From positions 1 through 24,090 of the IMG/VR virus record IMGVR_UViG_3300031925_000034: a DNA stretch of 24,090 nucleotides. One strand, given 5' to 3'. The notes beneath the pieces were generated by a model that saw only the letters and a list, made by a program, of their open reading frames with translations, was not told where the DNA came from and did no database searches. The DNA comes from a virus. Lineage: Duplodnaviria > Caudoviricetes. Shown here one piece after another: positions 3,401 to 21,466 of the stretch. The position numbers and the translations under genes were made by a program. Positions within the stretch are counted from its first letter, which is position 1, and each line of letters begins with the position of its first letter.

Positions 3401-4633
3401 AGTGTTAAGGACAGTTATCTTGCAACAAATTACCGCTTGCCTTATCTATTAATTGGTATTCCTGGAATCGGAAAAGGGAAAGGTATAGAAATTTTTACTA
3501 GTACTGCTTCTGATGCACCGTATGCCGAAATTTCTACTTTGATTGTAGATGGCACTCCAGTTGGGATTAATACAGGCTTTACTAATACAACAATTATTGA
3601 CGGTAGTCAGATTATAACAGGTTCAATCACAGCAGATAAAATTTATGGTGGCACTCTAACACTTGGAGGCGCAAATAACGCAAACGGCGTCATGAACATA
3701 AAAGACGCTTCTGGAGTTATAAAAGCAAGAGGTGACGTTAACGGGTTTTTTATTCTTGATAAAGGAGTTAACGTATCATTAGAGTCAAAGAATAATCTAA
3801 TTCCAGACCACAGTTTCGAGGCTATACCAACGTCGGGGTCAGCAGATGCAACATATTACGATTTTGCTATTGGAACACTGTCAAGGAATTTATTCGACTG
3901 GTTAGCTTCTGGTTCGCCACGCATCTTATCAGCACGAAATACAGACATTGCTCCAGAAGCAGCTTTTGGTTTACAATGTGTTGTAGTTAATAGTTCAAAT
4001 TGGTTGTATGTGTATGTTCCAGTGAAGCCAAGTACAACTTACTATTTATCTGGTTATACAGCTCGTGGTTATAGGAATCCAACCGCTGGTACTCCAAAAT
4101 TATACGTGGATTTTCGTGATGGTAATCTTACTTATATTAGTGCTGTATCCCGAACATTTACGCCCAATACATCTATGTTTGATTGGAAGCGTGTTGGATT
4201 TAGTTTTACTACACCCGATGCTTCAACTAATGTGGAATTTGCAAGAATTGTTGTATACTCTGCTGACGCTAATTACGTGTACTGGGACGGAATACAATTG
4301 GTTGAAGGTGCATTCCCAGCTATATACGACCCAGAAGAAAATTTATGGCGTGCAATGTACGGCGTGGCAGGATTACAAGGATTTAAAGCCTTCAACACAA
4401 ATTACGTAAGAAGAGGTTCAGCAACAATAAACGACTCAACTAATACGACCATAAGTTTTGGTATTACATTTCCTGGCATTCCAACCGTCGTTGCTTCCTA
4501 TCATGATACTAACTCAGGTGATTGGGGTATAGTAAAAACAAGAAATACATCAACTACTTCATTTGATGCTATCATTGGTGGCAAAACTTCAGGGTTGTCA
4601 AGAGTAATAAACTGGATTGCAATATACTATTAG
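467..4633 (+). CDS. Large modular tail/baseplate-hub and receptor-binding protein (carbohydrate-binding, LamG-like, ILEI-like and lectin-like modules)
   Basis: 1388 aa; N-terminal hub region, LamG-like motifs (TIEFWVKP, WYYIALRW, YIDDFRIS), 'VWRWNMGGLGYS...ITMDGAINADFI' tail motif, ILEI-like segment, CBM-like 'NLIPDHSFE...YWDGIQLVEG', C-terminal 'VINWIAIYY'. Confidence 0.85.
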   Translation: MYPVSEAYKNAIAQNERNVKIVGTITLKDGTVIEISDEDIVQGSLYVSEQCVAGEDIEIGNVYASEMGLSLNSPPENPYALDGARIVLNFGIETSEGVWEYVPLGYFYVTEIERKTDMVNLKALDGMILFDVDLSGVLTSGTPYEIINSCCSKVGITLATDSATFSAFANGNMTFTLSADSKVQTCRDLIMWLCQLTGTFARMNRLGQLEIVPVKLGASVKTIDKQQRFTSDVSDSYVKITKVAMKVGDVEYSQGTDGMTMVLEENPLLVGKSETEINTVLSNILNQVTTAEYIPYNVNFAGDPALQAGDYVTLTGIKVFDKICATFTRSSVAYLSDGTQVAANVPRFEPGKFGKAIMVEEGTTNLIVTPLIDATATNWGKVAVLGNGQANVVSGALFGDYSLEISVPNSIEDGGTDRAIWELGGTVPDDIKEAPQPNTTYTLSAWITDPTKAASIQFQPHDSDGQYHRQYGQLTGRTAIDSQGVTWYEVAVTYTTESDVTDWSWGVRVSSEFANSSGTWRACGFQLEKKPYATSFVDGTRSAETLTIPTAGVLNPQEGTIEFWVKPLIVTNYNNFLFMTTSNGRFLLFFDINGRARFDYGPNNTGPYAPEGTITSNNWYYIALRWSATTGKQALFVNGVKYESGLPNGVATGFPATVTIVNNYSAYIDDFRISSIARSDEEIAQAYASGQPLPVDEYTTLKMNFDGSLSTITTVGDSIVTHSTWRYRGPHNIKAVGKSALVRGVQAQQTKSVSAVKTVAETAREIAQAANQSTQLIQDAITGYVLIRKNETTGSNEILIMDNPDPAQARKVWRWNMGGLGYSDNVVGVDNPDRQYTIAITMDGAINADFIKAGTLQGNIIAAGSITADKLKIGSTKTSSLYVRGTGLNRNANRIVRLDGIDLVNGTGRGLTLTVLNRSDHSHVSSTTYDVYGSDTARTDLANALNALGNDKIVILTSYDAIRFNAALEAAIERCGGGSVKDSYLATNYRLPYLLIGIPGIGKGKGIEIFTSTASDAPYAEISTLIVDGTPVGINTGFTNTTIIDGSQIITGSITADKIYGGTLTLGGANNANGVMNIKDASGVIKARGDVNGFFILDKGVNVSLESKNNLIPDHSFEAIPTSGSADATYYDFAIGTLSRNLFDWLASGSPRILSARNTDIAPEAAFGLQCVVVNSSNWLYVYVPVKPSTTYYLSGYTARGYRNPTAGTPKLYVDFRDGNLTYISAVSRTFTPNTSMFDWKRVGFSFTTPDASTNVEFARIVVYSADANYVYWDGIQLVEGAFPAIYDPEENLWRAMYGVAGLQGFKAFNTNYVRRGSATINDSTNTTISFGITFPGIPTVVASYHDTNSGDWGIVKTRNTSTTSFDAIIGGKTSGLSRVINWIAIYY
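3054..3640 (+). repeat. 23-bp exact direct repeat CAGGTTCAATCACAGCAGATAAA at 3054-3076 and 3618-3640
   Basis: Read directly; both copies encode GSITADK in frame and bracket the ILEI-like module. Confidence 0.9.
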
Positions 4634-4645
4634 TGAGGTGATAGG

Positions 4646-5017
4646 ATGATAAAGGAAATATATTATGAAACTACACACAACAAAACACATCATACTATAG
4701 TTCCAGTTATTGAAGGCATGACGATAAAATTAAATAAAGGGTACTATCAAACGCACGATGGAACAAGAATAGAATTTCCAGAAGATATATTAGAAATCGA
4801 AACGCCAGCAGTAGATACTTACTATGCAATAAAATTTCTAAAAAATGGCGAATACTACTGCATCATACAAGAGATAGGGGCAGATGATGCCCCGCAACAT
4901 CCGCTATTTTTAGATAATTTTATAAGTTTTGTAGCACCAGCAGGGTCAACATCATTAGACGACATCGAAATAACTGTGTTGCTACCAAAATTTGTAGATG
5001 AAGAGGTGACATCATGA
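4646..5017 (+). CDS. Hypothetical tail-associated protein
   Basis: 123 aa ORF with GAGGTG RBS directly after the tail protein. Confidence 0.7.
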   Translation: MIKEIYYETTHNKTHHTIVPVIEGMTIKLNKGYYQTHDGTRIEFPEDILEIETPAVDTYYAIKFLKNGEYYCIIQEIGADDAPQHPLFLDNFISFVAPAGSTSLDDIEITVLLPKFVDEEVTS

Positions 5018-5220
5018 AAATAGAGAAGTTTACTTTGCAAGACAAAAAAAAGAAAGAGCAGGACAAATGGGATAAATTCCAGAAATTATCACAAAAAGAA
5101 AAAGAGAAACTATTGTTTAAGCTGTTAGACAAATTTGGTATGTTAGATGATGAGCAGAACAAAAGACAGTACCTAATAAAGAAGCAGAGAACGAATAAAT
5201 ATTATTGTCAAAAAGAGTAG
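5014..5220 (+). CDS. Small hypothetical protein
   Basis: 68 aa, GAGGTG RBS, ATGA overlap with upstream stop. Confidence 0.6.
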   Translation: MKIEKFTLQDKKKKEQDKWDKFQKLSQKEKEKLLFKLLDKFGMLDDEQNKRQYLIKKQRTNKYYCQKE

Positions 5221-5243
5221 GGTTATCACCTACTCTTTTCTTA
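5211..5243 (+). terminator. Intrinsic terminator after tail module
   Basis: AAAAGAGTAGG-gttatca-CCTACTCTTTT inverted repeat followed by T-rich tract. Confidence 0.7.
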
Positions 5244-5276
5244 TTGTATTCTTTTTGGCAGAAAGGGGTATGTACT

Positions 5277-5492
5277 ATGAATTTAGAGGAGAAGGTGAAT
5301 GACATGGAGGTACTATTAGGTAAACATGATGAAAGATTAAAAAAATTGGAGGAATGGCAGTCAAAGCAAAACGGAAGCCTACTCAGGCTTGAACAAAAGG
5401 TAGAAGGTATATATTCATGGCTGATTGGTCTTATGGGTGGTATGATTGTTTCCCTGATTTTGCTTGTCGTTAACATGCTTAAAGGGAGGTGA
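5277..5492 (+). CDS. XhlA-like/holin-like membrane protein
   Basis: Start re-assigned to ATG 5277 (GAAAGGGG RBS); coiled-coil N-terminus, single C-terminal TM helix; precedes endolysin. Confidence 0.75.
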   Translation: MNLEEKVNDMEVLLGKHDERLKKLEEWQSKQNGSLLRLEQKVEGIYSWLIGLMGGMIVSLILLVVNMLKGR

Positions 5493-6247
5493 AGTGGGTG
5501 CAGATTTACGATGTAGGCTTACAATTTAGACAAGCTTTGCAAAAGCGAACAACGACGGACTACATTATCTTGCATCACGCAGCAGCAAGCGAAGCATCGG
5601 TTACATCCATCCATAATTGGCATCTTCAGCGTGGCTGGGCAGGCATAGGATACCACTATTATGTGCGCAAAGACGGAAGCATTTATCGAGGCAGATCCGA
5701 GGACACAATTGGTGCGCATACCGAAGAATACAACAGCCGGAGCATCGGCATATGTGCAGAAGGCAACTTTGAAGTAGAAATGATGTCGGATGCGCAGAAA
5801 CGAGCTATTATAGAGCTATTGCGGGAACTGAAGAAAAGGTATCCGAATGCACAGATAAAGAGACATAAAGACTTTGCAGCAACAGCTTGTCCAGGCAAAA
5901 ATTACCCATTTGAGGAAATTGTACGAGAGACATTAAAGGAGGAAGATGAAGCGATGAAGAAAGGGGATAAAGGTACGCAAGTTAAAAAGATACAAGAAAT
6001 GCTGCTTGCGTTAGGTTATTCGCTACCTAAATACGGTGCGGATGGTGCCTTTGGGAGCGAAACCGAGGCAGCAGTAAATGCATTCAAAAAAGCTGTCAAT
6101 TTGCCACAAAACGGTATTGTAGATATAAACACCTTGCTGGCAATGAGCGAAGCACTTGTAAATAAGGAAAAAGCAAGGACACAAGATTTTCAGAATCGCC
6201 TGCAAGTGGCCAAAACATATGCGAAGAAAATAGCGGAGGAGGCGTAA
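5489..6247 (+). CDS. Endolysin, N-acetylmuramoyl-L-alanine amidase (Amidase_2) with peptidoglycan-binding domain
   Basis: IILHH, GIGYHY, GAH, SIGICAEGNF, H..ATACPG zinc-amidase motifs; 'GADGAFGSETEAAVNAFK' PG_binding_1-like. Confidence 0.93.
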   Translation: MKWVQIYDVGLQFRQALQKRTTTDYIILHHAAASEASVTSIHNWHLQRGWAGIGYHYYVRKDGSIYRGRSEDTIGAHTEEYNSRSIGICAEGNFEVEMMSDAQKRAIIELLRELKKRYPNAQIKRHKDFAATACPGKNYPFEEIVRETLKEEDEAMKKGDKGTQVKKIQEMLLALGYSLPKYGADGAFGSETEAAVNAFKKAVNLPQNGIVDINTLLAMSEALVNKEKARTQDFQNRLQVAKTYAKKIAEEA

Positions 6248-6251
6248 TACT

Positions 6252-6497
6252 ATGGAAATTTACAATGTTGCCATTATCCCTCTTATTGTTGGTGTAGTCG
6301 AGTTGGCCAAAAAACTTGGCCTTCCAGACAAATTTGCAGCCGTTTTAAGCGCAGTTTTAGGCGTGGTAATAGGATTGGTCTATGTGGCGCCAAACGACCC
6401 TGCTAAAGGCGTTTTAATCGGTTTAAGCATGGGTCTGTCGGCAAGTGGGTTGTACAGCGGTGTAAAGAATACGGCGGAAGGTATCAAGGGGCAGTGA
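6252..6497 (+). CDS. Holin
   Basis: 81 aa, several hydrophobic helices, 'GLSASGLYS' C-terminal motif, next to endolysin. Confidence 0.85.
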   Translation: MEIYNVAIIPLIVGVVELAKKLGLPDKFAAVLSAVLGVVIGLVYVAPNDPAKGVLIGLSMGLSASGLYSGVKNTAEGIKGQ

Positions 6498-6512
6498 TGC
6501 CCCTCTTTTTTT
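6487..6512 (+). terminator. Terminator of lysis cassette
   Basis: AGGGGCA-gtga-TGCCCCT then CTTTTTTT. Confidence 0.8.
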
Positions 6513-6624
6513 GTTCCCACCCGAGCAGTTAGCCGCTCTTTTTATGTCTCCGCTTGCAAACATTTTGCTATGCCCGTTCAATTTTCTCTCATTATAAAGC
6601 AAATACAAACGTTATCATATGGGT

Positions 6625-6650
6625 AAAAATAAAAGGGCTTGTTAGCCCTC
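6625..6650 (-). terminator. Terminator of leftward accessory operon
   Basis: AGGGCT-aaca-AGCCCT followed by TTTATTTTT on the minus strand, overlapping the RHH stop. Confidence 0.65.
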
Positions 6651-6797
6651 TTTGTTCTCATCTATAACCTCTCTCAATTTTTCTCTTACAAACTCCGACA
6701 TGGAATATCCCATCTCGGCAAGTTTTTTTTCGGCTTTTTCTTTTAATTCGGACGGTAGCTTCACTTGTATATATGCATCGTTCTTTTTTATTTTCAA
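6642..6797 (-). CDS. Ribbon-helix-helix (CopG/RelB-like) DNA-binding protein, Aca-like position; not in ORF track
   Basis: TTG start with AGGAGG RBS; MKIKKNDAYIQVKLPSELKEKAEKKLAEMGYSMSEFVREKLREVIDENKEG (51 aa): beta strand, helix, G-x-S-x-S-E turn, helix. Confidence 0.8.
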   Translation of the reverse strand: MKIKKNDAYIQVKLPSELKEKAEKKLAEMGYSMSEFVREKLREVIDENKEG

Positions 6798-6822
6798 TTT
6801 ATCGCCTCCTATCTCTTTTTAT

Positions 6823-7203
6823 TTACTCCCAGCCGTCTATCCCCTTTTTAAAAGGGGAAATAACATACGTACAATGTGGAAGGGCGCCGTCAAATTGGCG
6901 ACGCTTGCCTCCTTCTTCGTCCTCGTCTATCAGCGAGGACGGAACTTCTAATTCTTCTGCAAGGGTAATAACCGTTTTTTTCAGTCTTGCCATTTCTTCC
7001 TCAGAGGCTTCATCTCCGAGATAAAGCCCACATACCTCTACAGGCTCTACTACGCATCTATAGGGCCTGTAGAGGACGGCTACTCTTATGTTTCCATCAC
7101 ATTTCTGGGAGGGATGAATATGCAAGTCTATCCCAGCATAGTAGGGAATGTCCCCTACTACGATTTTTATTTTTTTTACAAAAAATTCTTTTAAAATGAA
7201 CAT
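6823..7203 (-). CDS. Hypothetical accessory protein
   Basis: 126 aa, strong AAGGAGG RBS, acidic patches. Confidence 0.75.
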   Translation of the reverse strand: MFILKEFFVKKIKIVVGDIPYYAGIDLHIHPSQKCDGNIRVAVLYRPYRCVVEPVEVCGLYLGDEASEEEMARLKKTVITLAEELEVPSSLIDEDEEGGKRRQFDGALPHCTYVISPFKKGIDGWE

Positions 7204-7230
7204 TTTTTTATTCCTCCTTTATTTTTTTAA

Positions 7231-7253
7231 ATAGGCGTATCGGCTACGCCTAT
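7231..7253 (-). other. Intergenic hairpin with GCCGA loop (copy A)
   Basis: Minus strand AUAGGCGUA-GCCGA-UACGCCUAU. Confidence 0.75.
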
Positions 7254-7257
7254 AATT

Positions 7258-7533
7258 TTAAAAATTGTACTCAAGAGTAATAGGTTCATCGGGCTGCAGA
7301 TTGAAGTGTTCTGCAGTCCTTTGTTGTGCATAAGAGAGGATTGCCTCTCTTATGCTTTCTCCAATAGGGACGTATAGAACTACGTCTTTTTCTATAAAAG
7401 TTTCTCGGGGAATACGTGTCCCCTTTTTGCAGACTGATAGTGTAAAAGTGACATACCAAAAATCTTGATTCCATTTGGTTAAATCCTGATCTTTATAATC
7501 AGTTATGTTGACTACATATATCCTTTTATTCAT
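7258..7533 (-). CDS. Hypothetical accessory protein
   Basis: 91 aa, AAGGAGG RBS. Confidence 0.8.
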   Translation of the reverse strand: MNKRIYVVNITDYKDQDLTKWNQDFWYVTFTLSVCKKGTRIPRETFIEKDVVLYVPIGESIREAILSYAQQRTAEHFNLQPDEPITLEYNF

Positions 7534-7563
7534 TTTAATTCCTCCTTTTATTTTTTTTATCTC

Positions 7564-7580
7564 CCCGCATCGGCTGCGGG
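7564..7580 (-). other. Intergenic hairpin with GCCGA loop (copy B)
   Basis: Minus strand CCCGCA-GCCGA-UGCGGG immediately after a stop codon. Confidence 0.7.
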
Positions 7581-7943
7581 TTAGTTTTCTTCTTTTAAAT
7601 AGTCTAATACATCCACGTGTACAGCAATTCCTTCCCGTGGGTAGATAAGGTCATGGTACTCTTGTGGCAACCAGTCATGTATGCATGTAGGTCTTCCTTG
7701 TGCGTCGAACATTGTTGTGTCATATCTTGGTTGATTACTCCATAGGTATTCCCCGATTTCTACCTCTAACCAATCGGGAATAATTTCACCGTCATCGTTC
7801 CATATTGGGACAAGTCGGACGGGTTGATCTTCCTCCATATATTCTTCTGCTAGCCCGACGTAGTCGTCAGGTAAGTGTTCTACTGCTCTCGCTAAGCGAT
7901 TCCACGTGGTGTAAAATACAAAATCTTCATTAATCTTTTTCAT
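7581..7943 (-). CDS. Highly acidic hypothetical protein (anti-defence candidate)
   Basis: 120 aa, by hand count 27 D/E versus 9 K/R; AAGGAGG RBS. Confidence 0.8.
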   Translation of the reverse strand: MKKINEDFVFYTTWNRLARAVEHLPDDYVGLAEEYMEEDQPVRLVPIWNDDGEIIPDWLEVEIGEYLWSNQPRYDTTMFDAQGRPTCIHDWLPQEYHDLIYPREGIAVHVDVLDYLKEEN

Positions 7944-7977
7944 TTTTTATTCCTCCTTTTTAATTTTTCCCTGCAAT

Positions 7978-8047
7978 AGCAGGTTGAGCGTTGGCGGGCT
8001 GTTATGCCCGCTGTGGGAATTTCACCCACCGTGAACCTTGCCCTGCT
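7978..8047 (-). ncRNA. Twister-sister self-cleaving ribozyme (copy 1)
   Basis: AGCAGG GCAAG GUU CACG GUGGG-UGAAAUU-CCCAC A GCGGGC-AUAACA-GCCCGC C AAC GCUCA A CCUGCU: P1, GCAA/GCUCA internal loop, P2 and two hairpins with a UGNAA loop, matching the twister-sister consensus. Confidence 0.8.
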
Positions 8048-8319
8048 CATAAGAGTAAATCTTCTTCAAAAATTTCTCTTTTTATTTTGTTTACATCTTC
8101 AGTAGCACTAAAGATATACCACTGATTCCCCTCATCCACATCGCATACGTGGATGAGGGCATCTCCATCAATTTTAAAAATGCGTTGCCACCCATTATTG
8201 TTAATCGTGGTGAAGTACATCACTAAATAATCTCCTTTTTTCTCTATCCCAGACAAAAACTCTTCAAAAAGTCCTTCCTCATTTTGTCTGTAATAATTTT
8301 GATTAAAGTTAATCATCAT
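8047..8319 (-). CDS. Acidic hypothetical protein flanked by ribozymes
   Basis: 90 aa, 17 D/E versus 8 K/R; AAGGAGG RBS. Confidence 0.8.
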   Translation of the reverse strand: MMINFNQNYYRQNEEGLFEEFLSGIEKKGDYLVMYFTTINNNGWQRIFKIDGDALIHVCDVDEGNQWYIFSATEDVNKIKREIFEEDLLL

Positions 8320-8351
8320 TTTTCCTTCCTCCTTTTTAATTTTCCTGCTCT

Positions 8352-8414
8352 AGCAGGTTGAGCGTAGCAGCCTTTCGGCTGGCCCGACTTTCACGGCCTG
8401 TACCTTGCCCTGCT
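8352..8414 (-). ncRNA. Twister-sister self-cleaving ribozyme (copy 2)
   Basis: AGCAGG GCAAG GUA CAG GCCG-UGAAAGU-CGGGC CAGCC-GAAA-GGCUG C UAC GCUCA A CCUGCU; P2 covaries with copy 1 (GUA/UAC vs GUU/AAC). Confidence 0.8.
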
Positions 8415-8486
8415 TTATTTAAGAAAATCTTTTCCAAAGATAAACTCAAATTTAATTTGTTTTTCTGAACCTTTTAAATTTACCAT
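8415..8486 (-). CDS. 23-aa leader ORF or gene remnant MVNLKGSEKQIKFEFIFGKDFLK
   Basis: AGGAGGAG RBS, first ORF after the promoter, stop codon abuts ribozyme copy 2. Confidence 0.55.
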   Translation of the reverse strand: MVNLKGSEKQIKFEFIFGKDFLK

Positions 8487-8530
8487 TACAATCTCCTCCT
8501 TATTTTTTTATTTCCCTTGCTTCTGTCTTA

Positions 8531-8559
8531 ATTGTACCACGCATAATTACCTTTGTCAA
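8531..8559 (-). promoter_or_regulatory. Strong SigA promoter of the accessory operon
   Basis: Minus strand TTGACA-17 bp-TACAAT with extended -10 TG and A/T-rich upstream region. Confidence 0.85.
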
Positions 8560-8579
8560 TACTTTTATCATTACTTTTT
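8544..8579. repeat. Three 12-bp tandem imperfect repeats over the -35 box (candidate operator)
   Basis: TAATTACCTTTG / TCAATACTTTTA / TCATTACTTTTT. Confidence 0.5.
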
Positions 8580-8821
8580 AAAAAATTTTTATTGCTCTCA
8601 AATCCGCTTGTATCAAGGGTTGTAGCGATTTGAAATAAAACTTGCAAAAATTTTTTTAAAAGAATTTTTTATCTCACAAAAAATATTGGTGCCAAAATGG
8701 TGCCCAAAAGTCTCTCTAAATGTCATAAAATATCAAAAAATATCACAAAATAAAATGCCTTAAAATGCAGTAGTACCAATGGTTTAAAGCCATTTTTCTA
8801 ATCTCACAAAATACTCATGGA

Positions 8822-8871
8822 TTACGCTCACATCGTAGAGGCCACAGGTTCGAATCCTGTTAACCCCACCA
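8822..8871 (+). other. attP core: 3' half of tRNA-Val(CAC)
   Basis: TTACG-CTCACAT-CGTAG anticodon arm, ACAGG-TTCGAAT-CCTGT T arm, TAACCCC-ACCA end; no D arm or 5' acceptor strand upstream. Confidence 0.88.
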
Positions 8872-8888
8872 GTAAAATAGCGGATTTG

Positions 8889-8920
8889 AAGGCACTAAAA
8901 AGGTGCCTTATTTTTGTTTT
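8889..8920 (+). terminator. Terminator after tRNA fragment (probably bidirectional)
   Basis: AAGGCAC-taaaaag-GTGCCTT then ATTTTTGTTTT. Confidence 0.65.
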
Positions 8921-8925
8921 GGTGC

Positions 8926-9669
8926 CTATTTGGTGCCTAAATTTTTTCCTATCTGTTTGACTGCATTTTTCTTCATCTCTAGTAAAACATGAGAGTACAC
9001 GTCTGCCGTTGTCGATACTCTTGCATGCCCCATCAACTCTTGAACAATTTTGAGATTTACGCCAGCCTCTAACAACATCGTTGCAAAAGTGTGCCTAAGA
9101 GCATGTAAATTTACATCTTTAATTCCTGCTTTTTTGAGTAATTCATAGTATTTTCTATTCAAATTTCTTGGATGAATATAAGTGCCATTTTGTGTGCAAA
9201 AAACCGGCTTATCTTTGCCATAATTCCCTTCCTCCAACATTCTTATTTGGTGCCTCCTTAGAAACATTAGAAGTATATCTAAAATAGGAACAATCCTTTT
9301 AGATTTTTCAGTTTTAGGCTCTTGTATAACTAACCCTTTTTCTTTTGTATAAACTAATCCTTTTGTAACGGAAATGGTTTCATTTTTAAAATCTATGTCC
9401 TGCCACGTCAAAGCAAGAAGTTCGCTTCTTCTTAATCCCGCTAGTAATAACGTTGCAAATGCAGCTCCTAATCGGTCTTCTTTTAAAACTTCTAAAAATC
9501 TATCTCTCTGCTCTTTTGTAAGTATCTGTATCTCTTTTTGTTTTTTTCGTGGTAATGTAACCGCTTCAGCAGGGTTATTAAGAATTAGCTTATTTTTTAC
9601 CGCTTGTTTTAAAGCACCTCTGACAATATCGTGCAGTTTATAAATTGTTGCTGGTGATTTCCCTTGCAA
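8926..9669 (-). pseudogene. int: Tyrosine integrase, N-terminally truncated
   Basis: Catalytic GLRRSE, PKT, HALRH, MGH and VY present; only 247 aa, begins inside the core-binding domain (GKSPATI), no clear RBS, overlaps repressor end. Confidence 0.85.
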
Positions 9670-9958
9670 AGAGAGGACGACCTGCTCTTATATCTGCAAG
9701 AATGGGCAACATAACCATATCCACCTGTTGGACATTTGAGATTGTTTGAGTAAGCTTCTTTTTCTCTCCATTCAATAAATAATCAACAGACACACCTAAA
9801 ACATCTGCTATAGCTTTCAACATTTCTGGGTCTGGTTTTCTTAAATCTTTCTCATATCGATTGATAGTAGCATCAGTAACGTTTAACAATTCAGCTAATT
9901 GCTTTTGCGTTAGCTCTTTATCTAAGCGAGCTTTTTTAATTCTTTTCCCTAATGACAT
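9638..9958 (-). CDS. CI-like XRE repressor, S24 peptidase domain truncated
   Basis: HTH 'LTQKQLAELLNVTDATINRYE..RKP'; 'LPILADIRAGRPLFA' is the start of a LexA/CI-type C-terminal domain, then the ORF stops. Confidence 0.85.
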   Translation of the reverse strand: MSLGKRIKKARLDKELTQKQLAELLNVTDATINRYEKDLRKPDPEMLKAIADVLGVSVDYLLNGEKKKLTQTISNVQQVDMVMLPILADIRAGRPLFAREITSNNL

Positions 9959-9984
9959 TCTTATTCCCTCCTCATTAATATTTT

Positions 9985-10132
9985 TACCATATTGGTAACA
10001 TAATTATACCACTATAAAAAAATTTTTTTAAAAAAACTACCGAAGTGGAAGAAAAACTATTGACAATACCAAATTGGTAGTCTATAATATAGTTGTGACT
10101 ACCGAAAAGGTAATAAAAATACCAATATGGAA
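9985..10132. promoter_or_regulatory. Genetic switch: five TACC-N5-GG(T/A)A operators and divergent promoters
   Basis: Operators at 9985-9997, 10038-10050, 10067-10079, 10100-10112, 10120-10132; rightward TTGACA(10060)-17-TATAAT(10083); leftward TG-G-TATAAT at 10003-10011. Confidence 0.85.
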
Positions 10133-10146
10133 GGAGTGACAACAAG

Positions 10147-10356
10147 ATGAGAGTTGATTTAGAAAAAATGAAGCGACTACGTAAAGAAAAGAAAATTTCA
10201 CAAACGGAACTAGCAAAAAAAATAGGCTACAAAACTGGAGTGGGCTATCACTATATAGAAACCGGTAAAAGAAAAATTAGAGCTGAAACATTAGCGAAAA
10301 TAGCAGAGATTTTAGGTGTTTCGGTAGAGGATTTATATGAGAAGGAGGTAAGTTAA
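10147..10356 (+). CDS. Cro-like XRE HTH regulator
   Basis: 69 aa HTH, divergent from repressor. Confidence 0.88.
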   Translation: MRVDLEKMKRLRKEKKISQTELAKKIGYKTGVGYHYIETGKRKIRAETLAKIAEILGVSVEDLYEKEVS

Positions 10357-10357
10357 A

Positions 10358-11002
10358 ATGAGTAATTTAATAAAGATTGAAAGCTGGAACGGACATGAGA
10401 TTAGATTTGTTTTTCACCATGGTGAATGGTGGGCAGTTTTAGCTGATATTGCAAAGCCATTAGATTTACAAACCGCCGCAGTTGCACGTCGGTTAAGGGT
10501 AATAGAGAAACAAATTAAAAAGGGTATGATTTCAAATCACCCCCTTCCAACCGCAGGTGGCACTCAAGAGATGCTTATTGTAAATGAGTATGGAATATAT
10601 GAAGCAATTACCCAAAGTAGAAAGAAGGAAGCTATTGAGTTTAGATTTTGGGTATACGACATTCTTAAAGAACTTCGCCAAACAGTAGGACTTGAAGGAT
10701 TTCAAATATTTAGGATGTTAGATAAGGAACATCAAAAGGAAATGATGAAGAAGCTAAAAGAAAGCTTAAGACAGCCCACAAAAGTAGATTATATCAAAGC
10801 TAACGTTATAGCAGACAAAGCAATTAGTAATCTGTTTGGTTATCCCAAAATGATAAAAAAGAATGAAATGACGCCAGAAATGTTAGTAAAAAGAGAAGCA
10901 GTTTTAGAAGATACAGTTGAATTGATGGCTTTAAAAGAAAAATATGGACTTGATATTTCAGTTTCGCAAGCAATTTATAACAAATATAAAGGAACAGCAT
11001 AA
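10358..11002 (+). CDS. BRO-N domain antirepressor-like protein
   Basis: 'EIRFV....EWWAVLADIA..L', 'PTAGGTQEMLIVNEYGIY....SRKKEAIEFRFWV'. Confidence 0.88.
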   Translation: MSNLIKIESWNGHEIRFVFHHGEWWAVLADIAKPLDLQTAAVARRLRVIEKQIKKGMISNHPLPTAGGTQEMLIVNEYGIYEAITQSRKKEAIEFRFWVYDILKELRQTVGLEGFQIFRMLDKEHQKEMMKKLKESLRQPTKVDYIKANVIADKAISNLFGYPKMIKKNEMTPEMLVKREAVLEDTVELMALKEKYGLDISVSQAIYNKYKGTA

Positions 11003-11017
11003 AGGGGGCAAGCAAGA

Positions 11018-11191
11018 ATGATTAAAATCGTTGGGGAATTAACACAAGAAGGCTATGAAATAAACTACAAAGGTGCTGAAGAAGGACAAACATATATAGA
11101 TATTCAATACAATTTAGAAGAAAAAGACAAAATAATTGACGCTTTAGAGAGAATTGTGGAATTTTTAAAAACTTGGAAAGAAAAACCATAA
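11018..11191 (+). CDS. Small hypothetical protein (57 aa, not in ORF track)
   Basis: MIKIVGELTQEG...LKTWKEKP*, AAAGGGGG RBS, fills the gap in the operon. Confidence 0.65.
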   Translation: MIKIVGELTQEGYEINYKGAEEGQTYIDIQYNLEEKDKIIDALERIVEFLKTWKEKP

Positions 11192-11209
11192 TAAAAAGGA
11201 GGAGGCGAA

Positions 11210-11416
11210 GTGACTAAAGTTCTCACTGTCAAACAAGCAGTAGAGCAATTCTTTAACAATACTATTTCACAAGAAATGTTATATGTACTTGTTAGGCAAA
11301 AGAAAATTCCTCATGTTCGCTTGGGTTCAAGAATTCTTTTTGATGAAGATGCCTTACAACACTGGTGGGACGAACAACTACAAAAGTCTACTACTGGTAT
11401 GAGAAAAATTTATTAA
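11210..11416 (+). CDS. xis: Excisionase-like HTH_17 protein
   Basis: 'LTVKQA...LY.LVRQKKIPHVRLGSRILF...L..W'. Confidence 0.8.
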   Translation: MTKVLTVKQAVEQFFNNTISQEMLYVLVRQKKIPHVRLGSRILFDEDALQHWWDEQLQKSTTGMRKIY

Positions 11417-17807: not shown

Positions 17808-18226
17808 GAATAGTTCTTACAATTCCAGGCAAACCTTTCGGCAAACAAAGACCACGTGTGACAAAGGCAGGTATTGCATATACACCACAGGAAACAGTCA
17901 ATTATGAAAATTTTATAAAGTTGTTATACATACAACAATACAAAGATTTAAAGCTAGAGGGAGCACTTAGAATGATTATCAGGGCTTTCTATAAAATCCC
18001 CAAGAATGCCAGCAAAAAAGATAAAAAATTGATGGAACAAAATATCATAAGACCAACTAAAAAGCCGGACATGGATAATATTGCAAAAATTATTGCAGAT
18101 GCGCTGAATGGACTTGCTTACGAGGATGACAAACAAATCGTGGAAATGTACATCAGTAAGATTTATGCGGAAGATGAATTTGTGGAAGTTGTCGTGGAGG
18201 AGGTGAGAGGAGGTGAAGCTAGGTGA
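17804..18226 (+). CDS. rusA: RusA family Holliday junction resolvase
   Basis: 'PGKPFGKQRPR', 'KKPDMDNIAKIIADALNGLAYEDDKQIV'; start re-assigned to ATG 17804. Confidence 0.92.
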   Translation: MRIVLTIPGKPFGKQRPRVTKAGIAYTPQETVNYENFIKLLYIQQYKDLKLEGALRMIIRAFYKIPKNASKKDKKLMEQNIIRPTKKPDMDNIAKIIADALNGLAYEDDKQIVEMYISKIYAEDEFVEVVVEEVRGGEAR

Positions 18227-18851
18227 ATTGCTTCTCAAGGCAACAGGTAGTACACCACAAACAGGAAACACGAAAGGAGTTTGTGTGGTTTGTGGTGCTG
18301 AGGTAAATAATGGTATACCACTTAAGGAATGCGTATCTGATAATTTCACAGGCTGGAGTTATTTCTTCTCAGGAAATTGTATGTGCCCAGAGTGCGCATA
18401 CCTTTTTAGCGACCAAACATTCCGCAGGAAGTCATGGGTAGCATCATTACAGGGTTTCAAGGTGTTTAAAAACGACGAGGCGCAGCAAATCTTGTTTAAT
18501 CCACCTGACCCGCCGTTCTTTATCCACATCGCCAAAACTGGTCAAAAACAAACATGGCTTTCATGCATCCACAGAGTCGCACACAATCCGCACAAATACT
18601 TCTTTTCACACGAGAAATATGACGTACCAATATTGTTCGAGCATGATAGGGCAGCGACGTACATCCAAATCATTGCAGAGGCAATGGCAAAAGGCTTGAC
18701 CAAAACGGAACTTACGACGGGCGAGTTCAAAATGAAAACATGGCAAAAGGCAATTGAAAGCGGCTATCGTGATTTCCTGCGAGAGCTGACTAAATTCAAA
18801 GGCGATATCTTATGGGAGGTGTTAGTGGATGTTTACCGAAAAAGAGATTGA
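18213..18851 (+). CDS. csf1: Type IV Csf1 (Cas8-like large subunit)
   Basis: CVVCG...SDNFT...CMCPEC zinc finger, 'LFNPPDPPFFIHI..GQKQ.W'; first of five coupled genes. Confidence 0.8.
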   Translation: MKLGELLLKATGSTPQTGNTKGVCVVCGAEVNNGIPLKECVSDNFTGWSYFFSGNCMCPECAYLFSDQTFRRKSWVASLQGFKVFKNDEAQQILFNPPDPPFFIHIAKTGQKQTWLSCIHRVAHNPHKYFFSHEKYDVPILFEHDRAATYIQIIAEAMAKGLTKTELTTGEFKMKTWQKAIESGYRDFLRELTKFKGDILWEVLVDVYRKRD

Positions 18852-19212
18852 GGATAAAACGGTAGAACTATTGGCGATAGTCTACAATAGCATAAATTGG
18901 AGTAAGATGCATACCAGCAAGAACCCGCATGATATATTCAACCATCGAGTTAGGGCAGCCAGTAGACGGGCGACACTGTTTGAAGCGGTAAGTAAGCTGG
19001 CAAACTATTTTGGTTTGCAGTCGATTCCAACAGAAGCCATTAATATCACTCAAGAGCTTAGACCATATGAGAGAGCAGTGCTCAACAAGATGTACATGGA
19101 ACATATACCAATGTCTATGATGGCAATCATGCGTGCCAAAGAAAGACGTAAAAATAAAAGCCAAATGACAATCTTTGAGAACATAAAGGAGGAGGAATTG
19201 AAAGATGAATAA
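18829..19212 (+). CDS. cas11: Type IV-B Cas11-like small subunit
   Basis: 127 aa predicted helical protein between csf1 and csf2, the type IV-B position. Confidence 0.7.
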   Translation: MFTEKEIEDKTVELLAIVYNSINWSKMHTSKNPHDIFNHRVRAASRRATLFEAVSKLANYFGLQSIPTEAINITQELRPYERAVLNKMYMEHIPMSMMAIMRAKERRKNKSQMTIFENIKEEELKDE

Positions 19213-20041
19213 GCGATTTTATGAAATTGAGGGCACTATCACGGCTTTGACACCAATTTTTCATGGAGGGGACGAAAAGACAGGGTCAACACCGGTTTTA
19301 CGCACAATCATGGTGTATGTGGACGGTATTGGCGAGGTGCCGATACCGTATATCTCCGGGAACGGTATTCGTGGTAAGCTCCGCAGGCTAAGCATAAAAG
19401 ATTTTCTTGATATGCTAGGGTACGAAATCACTAACACAAAACTACACCATGCGCTGTTTTCAGGAGGTGTACTGGAAAGCACAAGCGACACCACAGGCGT
19501 AATCGACCTGGCATTCCGAAAGAAAGTGCGAGAACTTATGCCACCTGTGGCCATATTCGGCTGCGCATTGGGCAACCAAATGATACAAGGTAACTTGATA
19601 GTGGAACACATGTGGCCCATATGCGAGGAGTACAAACCATATCTGCCAGAGGAGTACCAAAAGGACCCACGTGCAGAGCGACCCATCCGCACATTTACCG
19701 ACCAAAGCTTTATAACAAGGCGGGATGATTTGCGTGAGGAGCGCCAAGAAGACGAGCAGGCGGTGCAAATGAAGGTAGATTATGAATGCTTTGTACCCGG
19801 TACGAAGTTTTTCCACCGCTTTGTGCTGCAACTACCAGACCAACTTCAGCTTAGCGCCTTTGGCCGAGTATTAGACCTGTTTGAAGCTATGCCATATGTG
19901 GGAGGCAGGAGCTCCAGCGGTGATGGCAAGGTCATGTTGAACTACAAGAACAAGCCAGATGCCAGCCTGTATCTTGAGTTTGCGCAAGAGAAGAAAGACG
20001 AAATCATAAAATTGCTGAAAGAATTGGAGGAGAGGTTATGA
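19205..20041 (+). CDS. csf2: Type IV Csf2 (Cas7 family RAMP backbone)
   Basis: 'ALTPIFHGG', 'IPYISGNGIRGKLRR', 'LFSGG', C-terminal glycine-rich loop 'VGGRSSSGDG'. Confidence 0.9.
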   Translation: MNKRFYEIEGTITALTPIFHGGDEKTGSTPVLRTIMVYVDGIGEVPIPYISGNGIRGKLRRLSIKDFLDMLGYEITNTKLHHALFSGGVLESTSDTTGVIDLAFRKKVRELMPPVAIFGCALGNQMIQGNLIVEHMWPICEEYKPYLPEEYQKDPRAERPIRTFTDQSFITRRDDLREERQEDEQAVQMKVDYECFVPGTKFFHRFVLQLPDQLQLSAFGRVLDLFEAMPYVGGRSSSGDGKVMLNYKNKPDASLYLEFAQEKKDEIIKLLKELEERL

Positions 20042-20820
20042 GCGGGATGTTAGAGGAAGTAAAATATTTTGCAAATCTAGCGGAGAAGGCTCTGCCTATT
20101 CGGTGGAGCCGCTTCCGGCCATTCAAAGTGACGTTCAAGATAGGCTCACCGGTAGCTCTTTCACATCCGTGGATAAATTTTGACAGCCTTATTTCACATT
20201 TGCTTCTTCTTGAGGCTTTTGGACAAGATTACTTCATTACACCTAAAAAATTTGACATATCACCGTACTTACCTAAGAACAACCGTCTTTTGCCTATTAA
20301 GAGAACAGGCGAAATCTATCATGCAAGTGTAAGTCAGTTTATACCGAAATATTCAGTTAAAATTACAAGGATTTACAAAAGATTTGAAGATAAATGGGCA
20401 GGAGACTTGGATAAGAAAAAAATCAGAGTAGGCAGTGGTCATTTTAGGTCATATGCAATGGCAGAACCGTATATAGCTTGCAAGGAAGTAGTATTTTACG
20501 TAAATGGAGATTTGGAGATTATCAAAGGTCTTATCCTGAGAAATGTGATAGGTTTAGGAAATGATTTACGCATAGGCTTTGGTACAGTAAGGGATATAAT
20601 CTTTGAAGAGATTGAAGAAGATTGGTCCTTGGTGGCTGGCGACATTGCTATGCGACCTATTCCTGTAGAAATGTGCAAGGAATATGAAGAGGCTGCTTAT
20701 ATAGCTTATAAAGGGCCTTATTGGAATCCTAAAAATGTGGCACTATGCGTGCCGCCGGGAGCGAGGTGTAAATTGAAGGATGAATATCAAAGAAGTACTA
20801 AAAAAATGGGCTCAGAATGA
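20038..20820 (+). CDS. csf3: Type IV Csf3 (Cas5 family RAMP)
   Basis: 'FKVTFKIGSPV....PWINFDSLI', 'GSGHFRSY', G-rich loop 'GLGNDLRIGFGTV', 'MRPIP', 'PYW'. Confidence 0.85.
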   Translation: MSGMLEEVKYFANLAEKALPIRWSRFRPFKVTFKIGSPVALSHPWINFDSLISHLLLLEAFGQDYFITPKKFDISPYLPKNNRLLPIKRTGEIYHASVSQFIPKYSVKITRIYKRFEDKWAGDLDKKKIRVGSGHFRSYAMAEPYIACKEVVFYVNGDLEIIKGLILRNVIGLGNDLRIGFGTVRDIIFEEIEEDWSLVAGDIAMRPIPVEMCKEYEEAAYIAYKGPYWNPKNVALCVPPGARCKLKDEYQRSTKKMGSE

Positions 20821-21466
20821 GGAATTTCAACAGAAATTAAATGAGGCTAATAGAATGATTTCGCAAGCATTAAAAAGATATACAAAGATGTATGTTGCCT
20901 ACAGCGGTGGTAAGGATTCCACTGCACTATTACATCTTGTATTACAGCACGACCCGGAGATACTTGTATTCCATTGGGATTATGGGCCGTATCTTATGCC
21001 TAGAGCTTACGAAAAAGAAATAATAGAAAACATGAGAAAAATAGGAGCTAAAAATATTTACATTGACACTTCGGATAAATATAAATCAAGAGAAGATACG
21101 GGAATTTGGTACAAAGAGTTTTTTGGTAGGGTAGTACCAGAATTATTGAAGCAAGGCTATGATGGCTGTTTTGTTGGTATACGAAAAGAAGAGTCTATAT
21201 CGAGAAAATTGCGTATAGAAGCGCAAAAAAGTTTGACAAAGATAAAGGAAATATGGCCGTTGCAAGATTGGAGCTGGAAAGATGTATGGGCTTATATATT
21301 TGCTTTTGATGTTCCATATCATAGTGTTTATGATAAATATGCTCCTATTGTTGGATGGGATAAAGCTAGATTTGTAACGTTTTTTGATAAAGAGTTTGAT
21401 ACGTTAGGAGCAAGTAATGTAGATGGTATATTATCATGGAGGTGGAGATATGACAGCAATTCCTGA
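20780..21466 (+). CDS. cysH: CysH-like (PAPS reductase family) type IV-B accessory protein
   Basis: PP-loop YSGGKDS, GIRKEES..R, PLQDWSWKDVWAY, PYHSVYD. Confidence 0.88.
   Translation: MNIKEVLKKWAQNEEFQQKLNEANRMISQALKRYTKMYVAYSGGKDSTALLHLVLQHDPEILVFHWDYGPYLMPRAYEKEIIENMRKIGAKNIYIDTSDKYKSREDTGIWYKEFFGRVVPELLKQGYDGCFVGIRKEESISRKLRIEAQKSLTKIKEIWPLQDWSWKDVWAYIFAFDVPYHSVYDKYAPIVGWDKARFVTFFDKEFDTLGASNVDGILSWRWRYDSNS

Follow-up and report, generated by a model that had tools for sequence, protein, structure and literature searches.

The accessory operon of this phage raises the question of what two intergenic elements with the same ends do to the transcript that carries them. The initial annotation had proposed that these elements, here called A (upstream) and B (downstream), are twister-sister ribozymes that cut a polycistron and release the gene lying between them. 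The reading that we consider probable is that A and B are the heads of swappable cassettes and cut the transcript at both of their C^A steps, after which a hairpin would release the product, prevent its rejoining and shield the new end. The window analysed is a whole virus record of 24,090 bases (completeness estimate 45%).

The operon and its setting

The window holds tail and lysis genes (lysin, holin), an integrase, repressor-like genes and replication genes. The operon lies on the minus strand, between an attP-like site and the lysis genes, and comprises six small ORFs. Its genes and flanking sites are as follows.

8806–8871, plus strand: 3′ part of a tRNA (CAC anticodon, CCA end) beside the integrase gene
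8531–8559, minus strand: sigma-70-type promoter-like site (TTGACA, 17 nt, TG-extended TACAAT), 11 of 12 matches
8415–8486, minus strand: 23-aa ORF (g1, shortened form) with a Shine-Dalgarno site; P1 of element A adjoins its stop codon
8047–8319, minus strand: 90-aa ORF flanked by ribozymes A and B, with a stop codon that overlaps P1 of B
7581–7943, minus strand: 120-aa ORF (g3)
7258–7533, minus strand: 91-aa ORF (g4)
6823–7203, minus strand: 126-aa ORF (g2), retained across sister phages
6642–6797, minus strand: 51-aa ribbon-helix-helix protein, the operon's last gene (Pfam RHH_1, 22.3 bits, cut-off 20.5)
6631–6652, minus strand: terminator-like hairpin at the operon end

The promoter-like site is the likely start of the operon and is kept in L532, L539, L572 and L573; the scan that detected it found five sites in all against 7.4 expected, and is by itself no proof. 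An in-frame internal deletion has left g1 with 23 aa in the window and in L536, while six of the eight loci carrying g1 encode 100 aa. The 90-aa ORF has two homologues besides itself, and none of the cargo proteins other than the ribbon-helix-helix protein gave a match in Pfam, PHROG, NCBIfam or Atlas.

The tRNA piece scored 25.5 bits with the Rfam tRNA model (8806-8860), below the cut-off, and ARAGORN found no whole tRNA at 8806–8871; it is likely the attP core. GGCACC repeats at 8688-8704 and 8919-8936, on either side of it, are likely integrase arm-binding sites, and the integrase itself is an ordinary phage integrase according to Pfam. The repressor ORF (9958-9638, minus) stops soon after the start of a LexA-like stretch and the integrase ORF (9669-8926, minus) seems to be without its N-terminal part, which looks like a deletion that fused repressor and integrase. 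From the structure of these ORFs, the phage may have lost lysogeny. L536 is 99.9% identical to the window over 4980-11412. Among the replication genes, positions 18213-21466 (plus) contain a five-gene type IV CRISPR-Cas-like cluster, made up of Csf1-like, a 127-aa ORF in the Cas11 slot, Csf2-like, Csf3-like and PAPS-reductase/CysH-like genes; its NCBIfam matches are below the curated cut-offs, and we take it to be of type IV-B. Nothing was found that would connect this cluster with the ribozyme products.

Compared as DNA with 50,697 phage records, the stretch 6600-8900 matched Thermoanaerobacterium phage THSA-485A best, in the ribozyme parts only. The named lysin relatives are from Caldicoprobacter (46-47% identity). 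From these two matches we infer a host among the thermophilic Clostridia.

Both elements have the twister-sister architecture

The pattern AGCAGGGCAAGG...CGCTCAACCTGCT, which the initial annotation had described as the shared ends of two intergenic minus-strand elements, matched the window twice, at 8414-8352 and 8047-7978 on the minus strand as it had indicated, and matched none of 100 dinucleotide shuffles. Folding gave a three-way junction in both cases.

8352–8414, minus strand: twister-sister ribozyme A, three-way junction (Rfam RF02681 42.3 bits, model R1 56.1 bits); P1 AGCAGG/CCUGCU, L1 GCAAG and GCUCAA, P2 GUA/UAC, P4 with SL4 GUGAAAGUC, P5 with GAAA loop, T2 pair G8388-C8400
7978–8047, minus strand: twister-sister ribozyme B, three-way junction, U35 subclass (R1 56.8 bits, fold z-score −3.6); P2 GUU/AAC, junction CACG, P4 GUGGG/CCCAC with SL4 GUGAAAUUC, P5 GCGGGC/GCCCGC
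8359–8360, minus strand: predicted cleavage step C8360^A8359 of A, equivalent of C62-A63 (PMC5660989)
7985–7986, minus strand: predicted cleavage step C7986^A7985 of B, equivalent of C62-A63 (PMC5660989)

The compensatory change in P2 (GUA/UAC in A, GUU/AAC in B) and the UGAAA loop of both elements were found as annotated. The P4 helix of A contains a G.G mismatch (8397/8383) at a place where relatives have C-G and the sister copies have no mismatch. The fold of B is a clean three-way junction, with U (8019) at the conserved SL4 position G35.

The covariance-model search that had been suggested as a check of the family assignment gave a split result. RF02681 recognised A (42.3 bits against a gathering threshold of 34), whereas B was not listed at E≤10, and B, falling short of the Rfam score, counts by its features as a twister-sister variant and not as an RF02681 member. 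Relatives were collected by pattern scans and then with a structural descriptor over 573 loci, which gave at least 148 matches, at least 103 of them distinct (at least 56 three-way and at least 47 four-way). A model (R1) was built from 32 aligned three-way sequences of 29 core clusters, leaving out A, B and their clusters; part of this training set had been found via the window's own flanks. R1 gave 56.8 bits for B and 56.1 for A, and the third-best of its 20 matches in the window at E≤10 scored 9.8. The twister-sister identity of the two elements thus stands by Rfam for A, and for B by the hold-out model and a residue-by-residue check. In the 32 relatives 95.6% of positions in helices P1, P2, P4 and P5 are paired, a figure that is partly circular for P1, P2 and P4, whose pairing the descriptor demanded.

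Rfam passed 4 of 25 R1 three-way matches in 20 loci and missed the other 21, and so misses most of the three-way elements tested; L542, nearly identical to the 5T5A sequence, scored 62.1 bits. A first viral pattern scan was too loose and yielded one new convincing element (L106) in at least 120 loci. A scan of genome contigs (33 loci) found no bacterial host genome with an element; its lone descriptor hit, L142, was lost at a stricter setting and was rejected as a chance match. Beside the R1 matches, the 20 loci contain three twister-P5 ribozymes and one pistol, and a type II hammerhead lies in L124. These three kinds of ribozyme and a skipping-rope RNA were seen in the same loci as three-way elements (L525, L537, L540, L530, L124, L534). 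Six viral contigs (L165, L169, L182, L201, L206, L212) carry three or four consecutive four-way twister-sister ribozymes, mostly with a Shine-Dalgarno site and a small gene next.

The catalytic loop and the T2 pair

Cleavage has been placed at C62-A63 within G59-C60-U61-C62-A63-U64, and mutation of G5 or A63 nearly or fully abolishes it (Zheng 2017, PMC5660989). The GCUC^A site of the initial annotation coincides with this step. In A and B the L1 strands are GCAAG and GCUCA, with G5-G9 and G59-A63 kept, and A (not U) at position 64 as well as A at position 32. SL4 is given as G29-U30-G31-C32-A33-A34-G35-U36-C37 (PMC5660989); at the sequence level its closing pairs G29-C37 and U30-A34, together with A33 and A34 (the T1 contact, receiving A7), are present in GUGAAAGUC of A and GUGAAAUUC of B.

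In 5T5A the T2 pair is formed by the first base extruded from the loop and the first base of the junction (PMC5660989). Among the matches listed these two bases covary: G35 occurs with C in 15 of 15 cores, and C35 with G in 14 of 14. T2 can form in 31 of the 38 distinct three-way cores against a shuffle mean of 17.9, and none of 10000 shuffles, which ignore relatedness, reached as high. This covariation, with its U35 and C35 subclasses, provides natural support for a tertiary pair known from one crystal structure. The T-loop swap (U-A 22, A-U 16) is built into the descriptor and carries no evidential weight.

Element A follows the T2 rule with G8388-C8400. In B the loop base is U8019 and the first junction base C8033, so that no T2 pair forms at the first junction position. 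Among the matches listed U35 is present in 9 of 38 cores, including all seven with a U12-A56 pair; in five of these seven, one of them B, the second junction base is A. A8032 is a plausible T2 partner in B, forming a U-A pair, and by its sequence B is a member of a natural U35 subclass that also occurs in THSA-485A. Neither the U35 and C35 subclasses nor the downstream hairpin presented below came up in the literature searched; the alignments or supplements of Weinberg 2015 and Liu 2017 may already show these.

By analogy with the family, cleavage should depend on Mg2+ and leave a 2′,3′-cyclic phosphate and a 5′-OH, and self-cleavage is very likely for A and likely for B. Against full activity stand the missing G35 of B, whose first junction C cannot pair with U35, the P4 mismatch of A, and A64 in both. 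We also considered that only A cuts, B being a decayed or slow copy that serves as a structured spacer. The absence of an Rfam match for B, its change of G35 to U, its extra junction bases and the alternative fold favoured in context would agree with this, as would the A.C mismatch in the first P2 pair of the THSA-485A copy. However, the recurrence of U35 in all seven U12-A56 cores, mostly with the A at the second junction position, argues for a distinct subclass. Moreover, the B core is letter-identical in L532, L536, L555 and L556, its catalytic loop is intact, and in related minimal ribozymes the loop plus stems alone cut, slowly (PMC11620745). Cutting by A alone therefore seems quite unlikely, and we retain cleavage by both elements as the preferred reading.

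Cuts at both C^A steps would, by geometry, release the 8047-8319 gene. They would leave leaders of 40 nt to ATG 8319 (A) and 42 nt to ATG 7943 (B), as indexed, which agrees with the leaders of about 40 nt that had been annotated; 33 of 56 three-way elements, among the matches listed, fall at 35-43 nt. The product 3′ of the predicted cut in B still carries four joined ORFs. Among the matches listed, a Shine-Dalgarno site and start codon follow within 86 nt of the cut in 46 of 56 three-way elements, and an upstream ORF stops within 80 nt in 38 and within 12 nt of G5 in 30 of these 56.

A predicted hairpin that repeats P1 follows each ribozyme

Four nucleotides after each element GCAGG is repeated, and it offers a second partner to the 3′ strand of P1. 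This repeat was absent from all search patterns.

8344–8357, minus strand: predicted P1-mimic hairpin CCUGC-UAGA-GCAGG after A, in competition with P1; 2 nt separate it from the new 5′ end
7970–7983, minus strand: predicted P1-mimic hairpin CCUGC-UAUU-GCAGG after B

The predicted 3′ cleavage products of A and B both start with AA followed by a 5-bp hairpin. In a first set of elements of the CCUG type, a stem of at least 5 pairs was present in 7 of 7, for a shuffle mean of 0.3. Among the matches listed, the mean pairing probability of the hairpin was 0.90 in 55 three-way elements against 0.64 for shuffled tails (best shuffle set 0.73), and 0.93 in 47 four-way elements against 0.78 (best 0.84). 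With one element per cluster (29 three-way) the mean was still 0.85 against 0.64 (best 0.78), although the count above 0.5 (25 of 29) was reached by the best shuffle (26); in the three four-way clusters the pairing was indistinguishable from shuffles. Exchanging the tails between P1 classes, which could be done for 102 of 103 distinct elements with enough tail, strongly reduced pairing: from 0.95 to 0.33 for CCUG (n=48), 0.94 to 0.18 for GGGU (n=38), 0.89 to 0.28 for GGGC (n=8) and 0.96 to 0.19 for GGGG (n=2). Of six P1 types represented once, only CCUA and CCCA had a hairpin of their own class, and four were without a clear hairpin. The hairpin begins 0-2 nt from the new end in 38 of 48 distinct three-way tails, among the matches listed. 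By these fold predictions the hairpin is real in the two large lineages, themselves equivalent to few independent events, without being universal.

The hairpin and P1 compete for the same strand. In folds restricted to secondary structure, in which Mg2+ and tertiary contacts are ignored, the probability of P1 was 0.99 (A) and 0.85 (B) for a transcript ending just after P1. It dropped at 37°C to 0.13 (A) and 0.02 (B) with the hairpin strand just out, and was 0.74 (A) and 0.00 (B) for a transcript up to the start codon, with a mixed outcome at 65°C. Because the hairpin strand out-competes P1 in the 37°C folds, cutting may be only partial.

The same competition could act before cleavage as a switch, in which a ribosome at the upstream stop codon melts P1 and locks the uncut state, so that the share of cut mRNA would be set by upstream translation, transcription speed or temperature. 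The stop codons lie 6 nt (A) and 5 nt (B) before G5. The upstream stop is as close in many relatives, within 12 nt in the 30 three-way elements counted above and within 15 nt in 38 of 47 four-way elements among the matches listed, these being raw counts with no shuffle background. Blocking the stop-codon stretch in the folds brought P1 to 0.0 and the hairpin to 0.89-1.0, and B can form an additional inactive pairing, UGAGC/GCUCA. On the other hand, phage operons are compact, so that short gaps after stop codons are no surprise, the folds put P1 at 0.85-0.99 once its 3′ strand is made, and the rates given for these ribozymes extend from about 5 (reported) to more than 100 per min (predicted; PMC6154101). 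We consider such a switch unlikely, and favour a hairpin that acts after the cut.

The predicted 374-nt excised piece (8359-7986) bears on a further possibility, namely that the middle gene is excised and its ends joined on the shared P1 as a circular mRNA, or that the flanks are joined and the gene skipped. The 5′ end of the piece, derived from A, is complementary to the 5′ strand of P1 of B, and the active site so rebuilt would bring the 5′-OH next to the cyclic phosphate. When the hairpin strand was blocked, the end-to-end P1 with B reached 0.93 (0.91-0.93 over the folds made). In the native piece it was 0.28 at 60°C, but the hairpin suppressed it to 0.003 at 37°C. According to the excerpts of Perreault 2011 (PMC3088659), a search among the products of tandem hammerheads found no spliced or circular forms, and no report of twister-sister ligation was found in the literature searched. 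Circularisation is accordingly very unlikely in our view. The ribozyme pair and hairpin might also form a latch, sensitive to temperature or translation, that makes the mRNA of the flanked gene either capped and linear or self-ligated and circular: the excised piece would rebuild B with its own 5′ end, and the blocking hairpin would loosen at the growth temperature of a thermophilic host. This is equally improbable; if true, a DNA phage would thereby make circular mRNAs without the help of protein. We also rejected a permuted ribozyme with the downstream hairpin in the role of P1, as inspection by eye revealed no GCAAG or P2 partner after the hairpin.

Proposed processing of the transcript

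In the processing that we prefer, each ribozyme would fold and cut soon after synthesis of P1. The hairpin would then strip P1, the sole helix holding both products, and pair the new 5′-OH end, and it would block the end-to-end re-formation of P1 in the excised 374-nt piece. This model of early cleavage, product release and end protection would yield gene-sized mRNAs with a standard 5′ leader and with a ribozyme body as structured 3′ end. An incoming gene would thereby be expressed independently of its neighbours.

RNase J is expected to need several unpaired 5′ bases, for which the literature search gave no confirmation. In Bacilli, a 5′ hairpin or a ribosome-binding site stabilises the downstream mRNA, whereas RNase J1 attacks an exposed ribozyme-made 5′-OH end and degrades the glmS mRNA (PMC3997798). 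Cleavage might therefore lower expression, with RNase J degrading from the 5′-OH and the ribozymes setting a gradient of mRNA decay. The glmS precedent would fit, as would the differing product stabilities suggested for bacterial ribozymes (PMC6765202), and the hairpins are weak at 65°C, the whole 3′-product folds amounting to -3.0 and -3.8 kcal/mol. However, pairing is predicted to begin no more than 2 nt from the new end in A and B, as in most of the tails analysed above, and strong Shine-Dalgarno sites, of the kind that stabilises downstream mRNA in Bacilli (PMC3997798), come next. Decay is thus a doubtful outcome, and protection of the cut end is preferred.

Genes are exchanged at the ribozymes

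Two or more elements (two to four) were present in 23 of 116 element-bearing loci, always on the same strand and 296-1497 nt apart, among the matches listed; the 116 loci are a redundant count, in which the window's own locus and, for some contigs, overlapping pieces take part. The cassettes were compared in 23 mapped loci, with breakpoints read from the maps. In sister phages, different genes follow each ribozyme. In L532, B comes directly after g1, and L555 has the same upstream flank. In L569 and L572, g3 follows A, and L572 joins the body of A to the tail of B. A third ribozyme body occupies the slot of B in L122, and L123, L546 and L573 have other genes between two ribozymes. As read from the maps, the ribozyme ends, or the adjoining leaders, would be the exchange joints.

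These exchanges could mean that the identical ends are simply DNA repeats, recombination joints for the gain, loss and swap of accessory genes, with catalysis incidental. The arrangements just described would agree with this. Nevertheless, T2 covaries and the internal helices vary with their pairing kept, and homology for recombination needs neither; the shared A-rich Shine-Dalgarno leaders are alternative joints, the breakpoints being those of the maps. We give this explanation very little weight, and hold that the cassette heads are probably active ribozymes.

Further downstream, two other gaps of the operon contain hairpins with a common loop.

7564–7580, minus strand: intergenic hairpin with A-GCCGA-U loop, in the slot that is filled upstream by ribozymes; also scored as a plus-strand terminator-like site
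7231–7253, minus strand: another intergenic hairpin, whose A-GCCGA-U loop is identical and whose 9-bp stem differs

Such hairpins were also seen in sister phages and THSA-485A, as well as inside the DUF1874-type gene g7 of relatives. They gave no match in Rfam. By itself the loop exceeds chance in the window only marginally, a count of 2 being reached by 2 of 100 shuffles. The hairpin is not widespread, since a stem of at least 4 pairs was found in 4 of 111 distinct viral matches (background 1.9%), two of them in sister phage L618. It is possibly a protein-binding or processing signal.

Comparison with known systems

Both the ribozyme class of A and B and their kind of arrangement were known before. 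Twister-sister itself came out of a search around genes associated with other ribozymes, and a role in polycistron processing has been suggested for phages without being settled (PMC6765202, PMC5737381, PMC6154101). Tandem hammerheads flank single variable prophage genes and cut 2-kb native transcripts in vitro (Perreault 2011, PMC3088659); protein-free processing of phage polycistrons by tandem ribozymes, according to these excerpts, is therefore a proposal already made, and one shown in vitro for hammerheads. The likeness to the prophage operons lies in several same-strand ribozymes between small variable genes of a temperate phage, with proposed cutting of long transcripts into single-gene mRNAs. 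The same arrangement was found here: same-strand ribozymes flank single small genes, the cargo is variable, and an integrase, an attP-like tRNA piece, lysin and holin are nearby. The differences are that hammerheads are another class and were seen to cut in vitro, one set in E. coli, whereas A and B are known from sequence, and that the excerpts of PMC3088659 mention neither a P1-mimic hairpin nor exchange at ribozyme ends.

The closest structural model is the three-way ribozyme 5T5A (RF02681, Liu et al. 2017). A and B share with it P1 GCAGG/CCUGC, an identical first 11 nt (PMC7373991), GCAAG, a 3-bp P2, the absence of P3, P4 with SL4, P5 and the GCUCA strand; A also has its T2 pair from first extruded loop base to first junction base. 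They differ in GCUCAA, compared with GCUCAUU in 5T5A and GCUCAU in the four-way form, and in the loop UGAAA in place of UGCAA; B in addition has U35, a U12-A56 P2 pair and a longer junction, and A the P4 mismatch. The downstream P1-mimic hairpin is absent from the Rfam model and the crystal constructs as described in these sources. With the four-way form (5Y85/5Y87, Zheng 2017, PMC5660989) they share an L1 of 5+6 nt, the residues G5, C6, A7, A8, G9, G59, C60, U61, C62 and A63, and the SL4 closing pairs G29-C37 and U30-A34, and the four-way elements of phage contigs are likewise in tandem before genes. A and B differ from it by having no P3, by A64, and by a T2 junction pair where the four-way form has the G35.(G56-C12) triple.

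The glmS ribozyme of Bacillus also cleaves itself upstream of a gene and leaves a 5′-OH in a Firmicute (PMC3997798, excerpts). It needs a metabolite and triggers decay, whereas A and B are without a ligand site, intergenic and repeated, and their new end is predicted to be paired. Integron attC sites are single-stranded DNA hairpins with extrahelical bases used by the integron integrase (PMC5737381, excerpts); A and B, in contrast, fit the ribozyme model, and the integrase nearby is of phage type.

A relative with a cultured host

The THSA-485A genome (CP003186) has one element (R1 55.3 bits), which gave no Rfam match at E≤0.1. Its neighbours on either side are Tsac_2835 and Tsac_2836, and the stop codon of the latter overlaps P1. 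As indexed, its predicted cut falls at 3465/3464 of CP003186. It is of the U35 type, has a P1-mimic hairpin with an AAAA loop and contains the A.C mismatch in the first P2 pair; an A-GCCGA-U hairpin is present in the next gap. After this hairpin, a hairpin-rich non-coding stretch of about 290 nt was observed (L694:5363-5640, Tsac_2835/Tsac_2834), with GGTTCGA motifs resembling tRNA T-loops and no Rfam match at its cut-off. THSA-485A was found in laboratory strains of Thermoanaerobacterium saccharolyticum (PMC5886521). With this cultured, non-pathogenic host and a B-type element followed by the hairpin, a test in vivo is feasible.

The function of bacterial and phage ribozymes that cleave themselves is unsettled in the literature (PMC6765202). 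The present analysis adds the P1-mimic hairpin, the cassette exchange, the T2 covariation and a cultured model, which should make function more testable while being predictions themselves. Synthetic insulators of the RiboJ type combine a ribozyme, a hairpin and a ribosome-binding site into a fixed 5′ end; they are hammerhead-derived, and their hairpin does not copy a helix of the ribozyme itself, unlike the P1-mimic described here. The locus offers a concrete design that can be mutated, consisting of ribozyme, P1-mimic hairpin, A-rich leader and gene. If the hairpin does release and protect the cut end, this would be a natural phage insulator, into which new accessory genes can be plugged with a standard leader.
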